NCBI GenBank assembly: GCA_934754425.1
Contig: CAKVIN010000010.1
Span: 15,075-79,074, forward strand
DNA from: an uncultured Candidatus Melainabacteria bacterium
GTDB lineage: Bacteria; Cyanobacteriota; Vampirovibrionia; Gastranaerophilales; Gastranaerophilaceae
Direction of reading: 5' to 3'
DNA: 64,000 nt
The stretch's first letter is position 1. The number at the start of each line of letters is the position of its first letter. Below are positions 6,739 through 10,717 of the stretch, piece after piece. The translations under genes were made by a program, and so were the position numbers. The notes under the pieces are model-generated. The model did no database searches, was not told the origin of the DNA, and saw only the letters and a program-made list of their open reading frames with translations.

Positions 6739-7071
6739 CTATTGGAAATTATATGTAAATGAGCGTTGGATAGAAGCATCAACAGCACCTTGAGCAGATT
6801 GCATTTCTGCATCAACCATTTTAAGTCTATTTTGGTATTCTTGCATTTGTAAATCAAGTTTTTTCTCTAATATAACGAGCTTATCTCTTCTGGCTTCAAG
6901 CTGTTTAATTGCAGGGTTATCAGGGTCTAAATCATTGCCAAGTGCCATAATCTCGTCAGACGACGCAACCAATTCCATCTTAGCAGATGCAATCCACTGT
7001 ATCTTAGTTTCCAGCGTTATCTTATACGCTGTAAGGTACATCATTCTGAAACTTGAGGCAATTAATCCCAT
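6739..7071 (-). CDS. Minimal member of the MG[ML]xAS...SF(K/T)(T/Y)(F/N) helical-termini family (unknown function)
   Basis: 110 aa. N-terminus MGLIASSFRMMYLTAYKITLE and C-terminus LDLQMQEYQNRLKMVDAEMQSAQGAVDASIQRSFTYNF align with the two ends of the 572-aa product of 8999..10717. Confidence 0.6.
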   Translation of the reverse strand: MGLIASSFRMMYLTAYKITLETKIQWIASAKMELVASSDEIMALGNDLDPDNPAIKQLEARRDKLVILEKKLDLQMQEYQNRLKMVDAEMQSAQGAVDASIQRSFTYNFQ

Positions 7072-7083
7072 AATATGTTCCTT

Positions 7084-7359
7084 CTACCTTGTTTCGTTTA
7101 AATTCTTACCTTTCAAGAATGTGTGTTCATTACTTTCCGCAATCAAGCTTTCCATTTTGTGTAATTGATGCTTGTGGTAATTAACCCTATACTTAGCCAT
7201 TTTTAACTTTTGTCTTATGGTAAGCATATCTTTTAGACAAGAAATCAAACTCACGGCCAATGCTTTAAATGGATTCTTCCGCTTGAAAAACGAGCGGGTA
7301 AAATTCATAAAATTCATAAACCGTTTCATGCTATCTTGTAGTTCTTCACGCATAAGCAT
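7084..7359 (-). CDS. Small basic protein, unknown function (first gene of the two-gene unit with 6739..7071)
   Basis: 91-aa ORF, 12 nt upstream of the 110-aa gene. GGAG lies 5 nt before the ATG. No recognisable motif. Confidence 0.45.
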   Translation of the reverse strand: MLMREELQDSMKRFMNFMNFTRSFFKRKNPFKALAVSLISCLKDMLTIRQKLKMAKYRVNYHKHQLHKMESLIAESNEHTFLKGKNLNETR

Positions 7360-7700
7360 TAACTCCTATACGATCTAAGCCTACATGTATTATAAAACAT
7401 GTAAACCACAAAAATTGCTTTTTTTCAGTTTTAGTTTTTACATTTGTTAACATATTATTTTGAACCAGTCCTATTTCCAGTGATACTATTGAAAATAAAT
7501 CGATTTTTATAATATTCGTCTTTTGCTATATTATTTATCGGCATTTTTTTCAAAAACTTTAGCTCTTTTCGGTTATAATACCTAATTTCGTTACAAAAAT
7601 TTACAACATTACTTAATGTTTTTATTAATGGGTTATTTAAAAATATATCAAGCATTATTCTGAAAAAAGTGCGTCCTTGCATAATATCTCTCTTGTTGAT

Positions 7701-7857
7701 GTCGTTAAGTCGTTAAGTCGTTAAGTTCATTTAATTCGCTTCGCTCATGATTTTAATTGTTTTTTTTATAATGTAAAATGAAGTAATTTTGTCGTTAAGT
7801 CGTTAGGTCTTTAAGTCGTTAAGTTCGTTTAATTCGCTTCGCTCATAGTTTAAATTG
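7701..7857. repeat. Two direct copies (7701..7759, 7791..7857) of the octamer element (GTCGTTAA)n-GTTCrTTTAATTCGCTTCGCTCATrrTTTAAATTG
   Basis: Directly visible 59- and 67-nt copies. The second has one additional 8-mer. Confidence 0.8.
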
Positions 7858-7965
7858 ATGACGTGGCATATTTATGTATGAAAAAAACGCTAAACTTATA
7901 GTTAAAACTACTAACTGTTTTAAAACAACTTTCCACTTTCAATTTTCAATTTTCAATTTATGAAT

Positions 7966-8101
7966 GCCGACCCAATGTCTACGTGCGTACCCGATTGATT
8001 ACATTAACTTTGTAGTTCCTCTTCGAGGCGAAGCTAGTAGATTCAATACAAAATTGTAGTTTTCACCAAGCAGCCGACCTAATAACTACGTGCGTAGCAC
8101 A
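7966..8101. repeat. About 1.5 units of the G+C-rich GCCGAC-N7-CTACGTGCG repeat family also forming the array at 57961..58535
   Basis: GCCGACCCAATGTCTACGTGCGTA...CTTCGAGGCGAAG...ACCAAGCAGCCGACCTAATAACTACGTGCGTAGCAC. It ends exactly at the stop codon of 8102..8959. Confidence 0.7.
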
Positions 8102-8959
8102 CTATAGGTCTTGGATATCTTTGCTTGCGGATTCGATATCATCTTTAAGCATTTTTCTTACTATATCACCTTGTGTATCAAGCATTTTGCAAACTGTTTC
8201 TATGTTTGCCACTTTTTGAGAAAGTATTGTATCTGCATTAGATACAATGTTGCTTGAAACTGTTTGATAAGCAGATAAGGCAGCGGATGATGTACCCTGC
8301 ATCAAGTTTCCCATAACAACTGCAGGCAAACCAAATTCTCCTAAATAAGGTGCTGCAGCGGTCATGATTCCGCCCCAACCTGATACAAGTCCTGCTAATG
8401 GCATAAGTATGTTAGAAGCACCTATACCATAACCATTTGCTGTTCCGATTCCGTATGCGGCAGTACTTGCAATATCAGCAATACTTCCGATACCGGATGC
8501 AAAACCTGTTGTTGCGCCATTTGATGAACCAAAACCGGAAAGCAGGTCACCTATTCCAGAAGCTCCGCCGGTTGTAGTTCCGCTTTGGCGATAACCGTAA
8601 TTTGCTGCGTAACCGCTTGGGAAACCTGAATAATTCCCAAGAGAATTTACGCCAAAAGAAGAATATGTTCCAGTTGTTCCGCCTGTTCCACCGGTATATT
8701 GACTCCAATAAGAAGTCCCTGGAATATTCATAGCACTTGTGCCACCTAATGTAGTCATAAATGCGGATGGTGCAAACAAGCTTGCTAATTGATATAAGAA
8801 ACCGCCTGCGGCTTCAAATCCTGTACCTGAACTTGCAGAGCCGGAAACAGTTAAATCTCTTAATCTGTCATATGTTTCGTACAGCATAACTTTGGCATCA
8901 GCTGAAGCTGCGCCATATTTGTTTGCTAAAACTAAGTATCCATCGTTTTTGTATGACAT
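8102..8959 (-). CDS. Gly/Ser/Thr/Ala/Tyr-rich low-complexity protein with structured ends, unknown function
   Basis: 285 aa with about 190 aa of GGTGGTTGTYSSFG / GYGIGASN-type sequence between ordinary N- and C-terminal segments. No signal peptide. 39 nt downstream of the 572-aa gene. Confidence 0.55.
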   Translation of the reverse strand: MSYKNDGYLVLANKYGAASADAKVMLYETYDRLRDLTVSGSASSGTGFEAAGGFLYQLASLFAPSAFMTTLGGTSAMNIPGTSYWSQYTGGTGGTTGTYSSFGVNSLGNYSGFPSGYAANYGYRQSGTTTGGASGIGDLLSGFGSSNGATTGFASGIGSIADIASTAAYGIGTANGYGIGASNILMPLAGLVSGWGGIMTAAAPYLGEFGLPAVVMGNLMQGTSSAALSAYQTVSSNIVSNADTILSQKVANIETVCKMLDTQGDIVRKMLKDDIESASKDIQDL

Positions 8960-8998
8960 AATTTTGTCCTTCTTTTATAACTTTAAAGAGCCTATCTA

Positions 8999-10717
8999 TT
9001 AGCCGCCAAAAGTCTTGAATGATTTTTCTACGTTGTCTTTAACAACCTTAGACACTGCGTCTATTTCTGTTGATAGAGCATTTTGTTCTGTATCAAGCTG
9101 TTTAAGTCTTAATTCAAGCTGTTGATCTTCTTGTTGAATCAAAGACGTTTTTGCGTTGATATCTTGAACCATTTTATCGTATTGAGCGTTTTCATAGTTA
9201 TATTGATTCATTGCATCTTTATATGCAACATCATCCGTAATCGTTTCAGCGTTCAATGCATATTTAACAGTATCATCTTCAAATCTGATTGATGAAAATC
9301 TTCCATTACCATCGGTTTCTACTAAAGCTCTTATTGTGTCAGATTGAGTTTGTTTGATATAACTTGCGTGATAATAAGATAATTGTACTTGATCATCAAT
9401 ATTATTTATACCATCACCACTTGCATAAGATTTATTCAAATCGGCAAATGTTGTATAGTAAGTTTTACCGTTCATTTGGAATGTATAAACTCCACCGGTG
9501 TATTCGCCATATTCATTAAAGCAATCCAATATTGACGTTGGAGTATCTTGTGCTTTCATATCTTTAACCACTTGGTCTAATTCCGCTTTTTGATCTTTTG
9601 TAAGATCAGTAAGAAGAGTTAACTCACAGTTACCAATATATGTAGGACGTTTCAATGATTCATAATCTTTTTTAGCTGATTCATATGTCTGGAATGCTAA
9701 TTGTTCCAATGTCTTACAAGTTTGAATATTGGCTTCATAAGTTTCTGCTTTTGTAGTAGTTTTATCAGCAGGATAAACTGAAAGAACAGTACTTGTACCG
9801 CCACTTGGACCACCGTATAGATTTTTCAAATCGGATTTTAATGCAATATTACCAGCCGGATCAACATAAATACCGGCTAAATCTTTATAGTCACTTTTAG
9901 ATAAAGCACCTTCTTCTATTAATTTATTTACAGTATTTTCAACTTTTGTTTTCAGAGCGTCATCTTCTACATGACTATAAGCGGTAAATGTTTTACTTTC
10001 AGTAACAGCAGTAAGTTTTGTTGTATCAAAATCTTCACCAACAGCGGCACCACCGTTGACGGTATAATATTTACCATCTTTTAGGTAATATAAAGTATCA
10101 TCCCCGTCTACTTTATACTGTGGGTATTTATTTCCATCTTTTTCGTAATAAACATTTTGTGTTACTACATATTCATCTTTCCCGTCTTGAGAAATATATT
10201 CACACTTATTTACATTTTTATAAGTATCATTATCAGCATAATTTGAAAGCGTTGCAGCTGTCTCTTGCGCTTTTTTGGTATTCGCTTGAGCTTCTTCATA
10301 CTCTTTTTGAGTAGAAGTAACAAGTTTTAATGCTGTTTCAATTTTATCAACACTAGCATCTATTCCACTTTGGAATTGAACTTGCGGATCACTTAATTTC
10401 TTTTGAGCACCGGTGTATACATTTGCTTCTTTAGTACGAGTAACAACATAGTTATAGTCTTCTTCCGGATTGGCAAGCTGTTCCCAATTAGTAATTGTGT
10501 AATCAGTTACTCCATCAGTATAAGAATATTGAGTTTTTGTAAAATCAGAAGTGCTTGGTGGCACAGGTACATTCAAACCCAACAATTGATTAAACAAGTT
10601 TGCTGATTGATTTGACAAAACCGTACGTGCTTGGTTAATTTGTTGTCCTTCGTATTCACAATTTGATTTTCTTGCAACCAGAGCTAAATATCTGGCTTGA
10701 GAAGCTGCCATACCCAT
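8999..10717 (-). CDS. Large member of the MG[ML]xAS family: conserved helical termini around a ~450-aa Thr/Tyr/Asp/Gly-rich variable core (candidate filament/fibre subunit)
   Basis: N-terminus MGMAASQARYLALVARKSNCEYEGQQINQ. C-terminus QQLELRLKQLDTEQNALSTEIDAVSKVVKDNVEKSFKTFGG (heptad-like). GGAG lies 7 nt upstream of the ATG. No signal peptide and no flagellin motif seen. Confidence 0.6.
   Translation of the reverse strand: MGMAASQARYLALVARKSNCEYEGQQINQARTVLSNQSANLFNQLLGLNVPVPPSTSDFTKTQYSYTDGVTDYTITNWEQLANPEEDYNYVVTRTKEANVYTGAQKKLSDPQVQFQSGIDASVDKIETALKLVTSTQKEYEEAQANTKKAQETAATLSNYADNDTYKNVNKCEYISQDGKDEYVVTQNVYYEKDGNKYPQYKVDGDDTLYYLKDGKYYTVNGGAAVGEDFDTTKLTAVTESKTFTAYSHVEDDALKTKVENTVNKLIEEGALSKSDYKDLAGIYVDPAGNIALKSDLKNLYGGPSGGTSTVLSVYPADKTTTKAETYEANIQTCKTLEQLAFQTYESAKKDYESLKRPTYIGNCELTLLTDLTKDQKAELDQVVKDMKAQDTPTSILDCFNEYGEYTGGVYTFQMNGKTYYTTFADLNKSYASGDGINNIDDQVQLSYYHASYIKQTQSDTIRALVETDGNGRFSSIRFEDDTVKYALNAETITDDVAYKDAMNQYNYENAQYDKMVQDINAKTSLIQQEDQQLELRLKQLDTEQNALSTEIDAVSKVVKDNVEKSFKTFGG

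Follow-up and report, generated by a model that had tools for sequence, protein, structure and literature searches.

A family of helical-hairpin proteins with variable inserts at the turn, encoded in a conserved gene cluster of non-photosynthetic cyanobacteria

We examined a 64-kb window (the whole stretch of DNA analysed, 64,000 nucleotides with a G+C content of ~31%) of contig CAKVIN010000010.1 from an uncultured Candidatus Melainabacteria bacterium of the Gastranaerophilales, in which two proteins of 572 and 110 amino acids (aa) had been proposed to represent a new filament or fibre family. All positions are given in window numbering. The two genes are the first and last of five that lie on the minus strand in the order: 572-aa protein (8999..10717, with an AGGAG Shine-Dalgarno sequence 9 nt upstream), a 285-aa protein rich in Gly, Ser, Thr, and Tyr (8102..8959, hereafter the Gly-rich protein), a basic open reading frame (ORF) of 75 aa (7455..7682, isoelectric point (pI) 10.1), a basic helical protein of 91 aa (7084..7359, pI 10.25), and the 110-aa protein (6739..7071). 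An ORF check returned the same coordinates as the original prediction, with the same gaps of 39 nt between the 572-aa and 285-aa genes and 12 nt between the 91-aa and 110-aa genes, and the computed pI agrees with its description of the 91-aa product as basic. The conserved 75-aa ORF had been missed and the genes had been divided into two separate units; clustering of genome loci shows one conserved five-gene cluster instead.

The original prediction held that the 572-aa and 110-aa proteins have an N-terminal and a C-terminal block in common. BLASTP aligned the C-terminus only (E = 0.048), and hhalign with shallow, untrimmed full-length alignments returned a probability of 1.4%. Both comparisons failed because the long middle of the large protein and the shallow alignments hid the signal. 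With diverse members drawn from 81 genomic loci, and with only residues 1–55 and the final 80 residues of the large proteins retained, hhalign matched the joined ends to the small family with a probability of 97.6–97.9% (E 2.7e-12). The N block alone reached 93.6% against the small family and aligned with residues 1–53 of the 110-aa protein, while the C block alone reached 94.7% against its C half. Among the controls, 30 column shuffles gave at most 7% probability (score 21.8 versus 71.7 for the real pair), a reversed alignment 1%, the other helical proteins of the operon (the 91-aa basic protein and the 75-aa ORF) at most 0.2%, and type III secretion system (T3SS) needle hairpins at most 1.2%.

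A natural intermediate of 109 aa was located in a GenBank entry labelled ‘Microcystis phage MaAM05’. It has an N-terminus of the large-family type (MGLAASQSRYLSLTARKNDLELTGQQINQSR) and a C-terminus ending in LELQLRRVDTQQQAVQTELEAVKKVIDKNVELTFKTFA, and these ends are connected by a turn of the small-family type (NLEPDSDEA) with no insert. Its identity is 48–58% to fused large ends and 21–32% to small hairpins. An alignment of 14 sequences, comprising small hairpins, the intermediate, and fused large ends, is almost gapless from end to end and sets the turn DLDPDNPA of the small hairpin against VPVPPS of the large proteins, so that the inserts of the latter map precisely to the hairpin turn. Trimmed profile comparison, shuffled controls, and the intermediate thus bear out the two common blocks as those of true paralogues and show that the 572-aa and 110-aa proteins form one family.

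The family core is ~109 aa long and consists of an N-terminal helix of ~45 aa and a heptad-repeat C-terminal helix of ~55 aa, linked by a short turn that contains Pro. The 110-aa protein follows this plan closely, with the turn GNDLDPDNPA between its N helix and a C helix closing with SIQRSF. The turn consensus of small hairpins is D-[LFY]-[DE]-P-x-[SND]-[PED], and that of the large proteins is VPxPP. In the 572-aa protein, residues 1–55 (10553..10717, minus strand) provide the first hairpin arm, a helix predicted at residues 2–46, and the entry to the turn, the Pro-rich LNVPVPPS. Residues 56–495 (9233..10552, minus strand) form an alpha/beta module at the turn, delimited by the AlphaFold2 (AF2) model, by indels, and by its absence from the 109-aa relatives. 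Residues 496–572 and the stop codon (8999..9232, minus strand) encode the second arm, a C-terminal heptad helix predicted at residues 496–570 and ending in DNVEKSFKTFGG. The N block is nearly invariant in the homologue alignment, and direct reading of the C helix reveals a regular 3-4 heptad pattern. In the AF2 model (mean predicted local distance difference test score, pLDDT, 82.8) the two helices flank a mixed alpha/beta middle with several long helices; the heptad-like ends described earlier are thus upheld, and the purely beta middle is not. The protein is acidic (pI 4.6) and contains five Cys, its middle is enriched in Thr, Asp, Lys, and Tyr, and a hypervariable, indel-prone zone spans approximately residues 160–260. 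These comparisons show that the ancestral form of the family is an antiparallel helical hairpin of ~109 aa, and that the ~440-aa module of the 572-aa protein was inserted exactly at its turn.

The 572-aa protein has more than 2537 homologues and the 110-aa protein at least 369 (77–96% identity); among the source names given for them are ‘Cyanobacteria bacterium SIG28’ and ‘Candidatus Gastranaerophilales’. At E < 1e-3, an exhaustive HMMER search recovered 1991 cluster representatives of 215–1074 aa, most of which match the profile in two stretches only, one N-terminal and one C-terminal; the dispensable middle of the original prediction therefore holds across the family. Across relatives the insert ranges from 0 to >900 aa. 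Ten members with the longest inserts were scanned and contained no significant Pfam domain. One of them (P0278, 1074 aa) has Cys...His...Asn motifs in its insert and a weak match to the calpain family (Peptidase_C2, PF00648, E 0.005) that lies below the cutoff, and another (P0275, 861 aa) has approximately seven tandem repeats of ~55 aa.

The 81 genome loci were gathered by tblastn and their genes clustered, and further metagenome loci were seeded with the Gly-rich protein. The order of the genes, all on one strand, is fixed in 44 of the 81 loci, and the other 37 hold solo paralogues in unrelated housekeeping contexts, where neighbours identified by sequence inspection (KdsA, AroA, LysS, and LpxB types) offer no functional clue. 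Several genomes carry at least three family copies, sometimes in tandem. The Gly-rich gene (44/81 loci) is an obligate partner in the surveyed loci, lying directly downstream of a hairpin-family gene wherever the contig reaches far enough upstream. The 91-aa basic gene occurs in the same number of loci and has a homologue in high-GC triads, including one at 9458–9748 of locus L082. The 75-aa ORF (32/81 loci) is a conserved but faster-evolving member that is missing from soil-type triads. Hairpin, Gly-rich, and basic genes were found together in each lineage sampled, from soil to gut, which shows this triad to be the universal core of the operon. The family is shown so far only in lineages labelled as, or resembling, Vampirovibrionia/Melainabacteria.

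The length of the hairpin gene upstream of the Gly-rich gene, from 109 to 769 aa, agrees with the earlier description of the middle as dispensable and variable. Insert-less genes of 109 aa occupy the operon position in contigs of 36–53% G+C, of which several come from soil or rhizosphere metagenomes, and these lineages have the triad alone. Other lengths at this position are 140–155 (tandem pairs), 179, 249, 322–355 (tandem), 416–449, 503–548, 572 (the window), and 762–769 aa. The 75-aa ORF and the second hairpin are confined to lower-GC lineages, most of them from gut or rumen, and inserts occur in gut and rumen lineages among the metagenome loci sampled. Mean pairwise identities computed over 33 complete operons were 0.84 for the N block, 0.74 for the C block, and 0.41 for the insert of the large protein, compared with 0.78 for the Gly-rich protein, 0.72 for the basic protein, and 0.64 for the small hairpin. 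These values show that the helices are under strong purifying selection and that the insert is changing rapidly. Tandem duplications of hairpin-plus-insert genes (for example, pairs of 326–344, 140–155, or 434–435 aa) were observed upstream of the Gly-rich gene at L095–L101, L102, L103, L105, and L110.

The record that holds the 109-aa intermediate (MW495066.1; L082, L163–L165) was deposited as a complete jumbo cyanophage genome of 273,876 bp. It has ~53% G+C and encodes ribosomal proteins L1, L11, L21, L27, and S1, secE-nusG, trpS, and metG, as well as smc-scpAB, secDF, uvrA, topA, rpoD, and genes of the TCA cycle and isoprenoid synthesis. It holds an insert-less hairpin/Gly-rich/basic triad and is syntenic with soil and rhizosphere contigs (L083, L086). 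The record is probably a chromosome fragment of a Vampirovibrionia-like bacterium; conceivably, its source was a predator taken for a phage.

Among the partner proteins, the Gly-rich protein has more than 1161 homologues at 84–97% identity, a glycine-rich hydrophobic stretch at approximately residues 184–222, and a C-terminal coiled coil. A relation between this C-terminal helix and that of the 572-aa protein was considered and set aside, as hhalign gave 6% (E 0.006), not above noise.

Searches against known families placed none of these proteins. Pfam, NCBIfam, PHROGs, and PADLOC returned no significant match for any operon member; what appeared was sub-threshold coiled-coil noise only, such as SPAM/SctO (6 of 20 diverse members, best E 0.014) and APG6_N (10 of 20). 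Sequence searches of the PDB with four queries (a single protein, two alignments, and a hairpin profile) returned generic coiled coils only, and Foldseek with the 572-aa model found no match at E ≤ 1e-3 in the PDB or BFVD. PHROGs gave nothing for the 572-aa protein and a noise-level match for the 110-aa protein (E 0.006), and no relatives were detected in 72,556 plasmids or 2.9 million IMG/VR viral contigs. A phage tail fibre or other viral structural protein was rejected on this basis, PHROGs, BFVD, and IMG/VR giving no support and the lone ‘phage’ record appearing to be a mislabelled bacterial contig. The family was not described in any paper that literature searches turned up. Profile scans and reading of the N-terminus agree with the original prediction that flagellin, pilin, and archaellin signatures are absent, and the search results agree with its judgement that the family could not be placed. 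A type IV pilin or archaellin was rejected because direct reading of the N-terminus, MGMAASQARYLALVARKSNCEYEGQQ, shows amphipathic, polar sequence starting at residue 1 and no G/A-F/M cleavage motif. Each membership test that gave an outcome failed, and the family should be filed under no known system. From its sequences, the hairpin family has no detectable relation to flagellin or to any other known family in the databases searched.

We tentatively favour a reading in which the hairpin family could well be a self-assembling scaffold that displays variable domains. The near-invariant helices would serve as an assembly interface, and hairpins with and without inserts would associate laterally to form a coiled-coil bundle or polymer, so that the hairpin tips, and hence the inserted domains, face outward. 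The Gly-rich protein, partly hydrophobic and with a terminal coiled coil of its own, and the basic protein may help to anchor or assemble the structure. Among host-associated lineages of the gut, the domain on display would have expanded, diversified, and multiplied into scattered paralogues, as one would anticipate for a surface structure that is exposed to pressure from host or phage. Such a scaffold would represent a flagellin-like ‘conserved core, variable display’ design of independent origin. In its favour are the conserved ends around a graded series of inserts, the conserved operon, the multiple and sometimes tandem paralogues, the occurrence of insert-less forms in the soil and rhizosphere contigs sampled and of inserts in gut and rumen lineages, the non-significant fold matches to flagellins and hook-associated proteins, and the antiparallel lean of the top N–C covarying pairs.

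Several observations weigh against this reading. The polymerisation of hairpins is something we infer purely. Mutual information between the N and C helices leans antiparallel in 7 of the 20 top pairs and is not significant (p = 0.09; parallel register, p = 0.99). No signal peptide was evident by eye in the five operon proteins, no flagellar or other dedicated secretion genes were found near the locus in the window, and no flagellar or secretion genes are conserved beside family members (81 plus 80 related loci); a surface location would thus require an unrecognised export route. The maximum Kyte–Doolittle hydropathy of the Gly-rich protein (1.48) is below the threshold for a transmembrane helix, and its AF2 model is uninformative (pLDDT 32). 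Insert-less, single-copy triads of free-living lineages adjoin smc/scpAB, acpS, and secDF, and this universal triad beside housekeeping genes would fit an intracellular role equally well. A more specific proposal is correspondingly speculative, and we regard it as unlikely in this full form: the triad proteins may build an unrecognised cell-surface filament or fibre of non-photosynthetic cyanobacteria, with ~109-aa hairpin subunits that carry exchangeable tip domains, exported without a known signal and converging on the design of flagellin. As candidate export routes, one may consider the Gly-rich partner or those orphan genes for flagellar export that gut Gastranaerophilales retain.

The strongest competing explanation, which we likewise consider unlikely, is an intracellular or membrane-associated coiled-coil scaffold with a cytoskeletal, division, or membrane-remodelling role, located at the cytoplasmic face of the membrane and bearing inserts as lineage-specific interaction modules. 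The lack of apparent signal peptides and linked secretion genes is consistent with it, as are the universal single-copy triad beside smc/scpAB, acpS, and secDF in insert-less, higher-GC soil and rhizosphere lineages, the hydrophobic stretch and coiled coil of the Gly-rich protein, and the presence of conserved Cys residues. However, the insert is highly variable in length and in sequence (identity 0.41 versus 0.74–0.84 in the ends), the paralogues are scattered and multiplied, and expansion is confined to the sampled host-associated lineages. A repeat insert and a weak calpain-like insert, each present in one of the ten longest members scanned, would also be unusual for cytoskeletal proteins.

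The ESCRT-III superfamily (PspA/Vipp1-IM30) offers a comparison in a polymer former built on a long helical hairpin, likewise in the cyanobacterial lineage. Cyanobacterial Vipp1 begins with MGL, as does the hairpin family. However, PF04012 and Snf7 profiles gave no match, helices alpha3–alpha5 are missing in the hairpin family, and its partners are different.

Less probable still is a role for the hairpin in secretion or docking, as a module of the WXG100/LXG/PE or type III tip-like kind rather than a polymer subunit, in which inserts are adhesin or enzyme cargo and the small hairpin is a partner or chaperone. Hairpins of ~100 aa with a defined turn, and a small hairpin encoded beside hairpin-plus-domain proteins, would fit this account, and small and extended members are likewise encoded together in WXG100/LXG/PE-PPE systems. 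One paralogue carries the weak calpain-like insert mentioned above, and an LXG-domain chain is among the noise-level PDB matches (E 0.65). The Gly-rich partner adds a superficial likeness to PE_PGRS proteins. Against this, neither a WXG nor a YxxxD/E motif could be read in the family sequences, and the variable region sits within the hairpin, flanked on both sides by conserved ends, instead of at the C-terminus. There is no linked secretion component, no EssC/EccC FtsK/SpoIIIE-type ATPase among the conserved neighbours, no Pfam match to type VII substrates, and no related PDB entry.

The type III comparison follows similar lines. Needle subunits (SctF: PrgI/MxiH) are also hairpins with a Pro-containing turn (DPDNPA in the family, PSDP/PDNP in needles), and the ends V-D-A-S-I-Q-R-S-F and IDAAIIQNFR resemble one another superficially. 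In T3SS tip and filament proteins (EspA, IpaD/LcrV class), too, a small hairpin-only protein is encoded beside larger hairpin-plus-domain proteins. However, the family hairpin is ~30 aa longer than that of needles and no injectisome genes are linked to it. Needle homology, as suggested by the DPDNPA turn and IQRSF end, was rejected on hhalign probabilities of 0.8–1.2% against an alignment of seven needle sequences and the lack of a PF09392 match.

The construction principle of flagellins was invoked in the original prediction and is an accurate description of the architecture. Like flagellin, FlgK, and FlgL, the family has conserved N- and C-terminal helices around a length-variable, dispensable, and hypervariable middle, and there are several paralogues per genome, sometimes in tandem. 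Some flagellins carry enzymatic domains, to which the one insert with a weak calpain signature may be compared. The best Foldseek matches in the PDB are enriched in flagellins, FlgK, and FlgL, but are non-significant (E 0.02–0.3) with template modelling (TM) scores of ~0.1. It is nonetheless very unlikely that the 572-aa protein is a highly diverged flagellin or axial protein, exported by a residual flagellar type III apparatus and glycosylated by a neighbouring Maf enzyme. According to published surveys, only about one quarter of Gastranaerophilales genomes have complete flagellar sets (10.64898/2026.04.24.720558; PMC4040986), and a preprint reports that ~75% keep only flhB, fliI, flgG, and similar genes, for which a secretion role has been postulated (10.64898/2026.04.24.720558); such genes could supply the apparatus. 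However, Flagellin_N (PF00669), Flagellin_C (PF00700), and Flg_bb_rod gave no match to the 572-aa protein at E ≤ 1 or to 20 diverse members at E ≤ 5, and NCBIfam gave none. In its AF2 model the 572-aa protein has one helix at each end (2–46 and 496–570) in place of the four-helix D0+D1 arrangement, and the partners of the family are Gly-rich and basic proteins rather than FliD, FliS, or FlaG. No flagellar genes are linked to it, either in the window or conserved near members. The presence of conserved Cys residues is a further difference from flagellin, and the five Cys of the 572-aa protein also count against a flagellin-like display scaffold.

The remaining argument for a flagellin is the Maf-like gene 4.7 kb away (2667..4340, plus strand). 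Its earlier identification was correct, with a PF01973 match at 3.5e-35, and the product is a putative Maf/MptE-like (PseD-like) glycosyltransferase, although its match to NF050051 (PseD-type, 6e-24) is below the cutoff. The link proposed between this enzyme and the filament is not supported as a conserved linkage, as a Maf gene adjoins the family in only 4 of the 81 loci, namely the window contig (L001) and three close relatives (L003, L007, and L027), and is not a conserved feature.

Finally, it is scarcely credible that the resemblance is a chance or compositional coiled-coil artefact among unrelated hypothetical genes, since the weak BLASTP (E = 0.048) and untrimmed hhalign (1.4%) results are outweighed by the trimmed comparison (97.6–97.9% versus ≤7% shuffled and 1% reversed), the low scores of other helical proteins (≤1.2% for needles, ≤0.2% for the 91-aa protein and 75-aa ORF), the natural 109-aa intermediate, the 14-sequence alignment, and a gene order kept in dozens of genomes.

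Other features of the window concern the spacer and the surrounding genes. A repeat-filled spacer had been described between the Gly-rich gene and its downstream neighbours, and it is real: the intergenic insert that separates the Gly-rich gene from the 75-aa ORF (7683..8101) contains runs of the 8-nt unit GTCGTTAA within two copies of a ~98-nt repeat, together with a pair of 24-nt repeats whose members are 107 nt apart. This gap is only ~50–116 nt in relatives, making the long spacer peculiar to the window genome, where it may be a small mobile repeat element. An Rfam scan of the spacer and locus returned no match, and no promoter or terminator signal in the locus rose above chance expectation.

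Just upstream of the Maf-like gene are two adjacent plus-strand ORFs (823–2608; ~289 and 297 aa by the gene calls for L001, 301 and 328 aa raw) with signal-peptide-like N-termini. They seem paralogous from motifs recognised by eye, and they have sub-threshold matches to type III translocon proteins (SctB, PF05802, E 5e-4; SseD, NF052420, E 0.037). They co-occur with the Maf gene and a 212-aa lipoprotein-like ORF (4345–4983) in the closest relatives only. On the other side of the cluster, a phosphate-porin-like outer-membrane gene (10824–12053), syntenic with the operon in 14 loci, is divergent from a minus-strand gene (12050–12874) for a 274-aa protein with an Asn/Ser/Phe-rich, low-complexity N-terminal half and a C-terminal CHAP/TIGR02594-type peptidoglycan-hydrolase domain. 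At 12985–19067 lies a minus-strand gene run whose products are a 292-aa protein without annotation, an O-methyltransferase, a multi-pass membrane protein of 652 aa, an ORF of 171 aa that has no Pfam match, a thioesterase, and a fusion of AMP-binding and ApeI-like dehydratase domains; the run recalls biosynthetic clusters of the aryl-polyene or lipid type. Further away (37721–43882), a two-partner-secretion transporter of the ShlB/FhaC type (POTRA and ShlB domains; 37721–39478, minus strand) adjoins two large plus-strand ORFs of 357 and 852 aa with no Pfam match.

Gastranaerophilales are widespread, uncultured gut bacteria that are enriched in non-industrialised humans and primates (10.64898/2026.04.24.720558). 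The hairpin family has thousands of members, with several copies per genome, and carries no annotation. If it forms a surface structure, Gastranaerophilales would have in it their chief variable antigen or adhesin, and it would constitute a new class of self-assembling filament and a display scaffold provided by nature. The insert series, with its graded lengths, also offers an evolutionary record of how a minimal hairpin can give rise to a flagellin-like architecture of core plus display. Even if the family is intracellular, the universal triad would represent a lineage-defining system in the sister group of the photosynthetic cyanobacteria.

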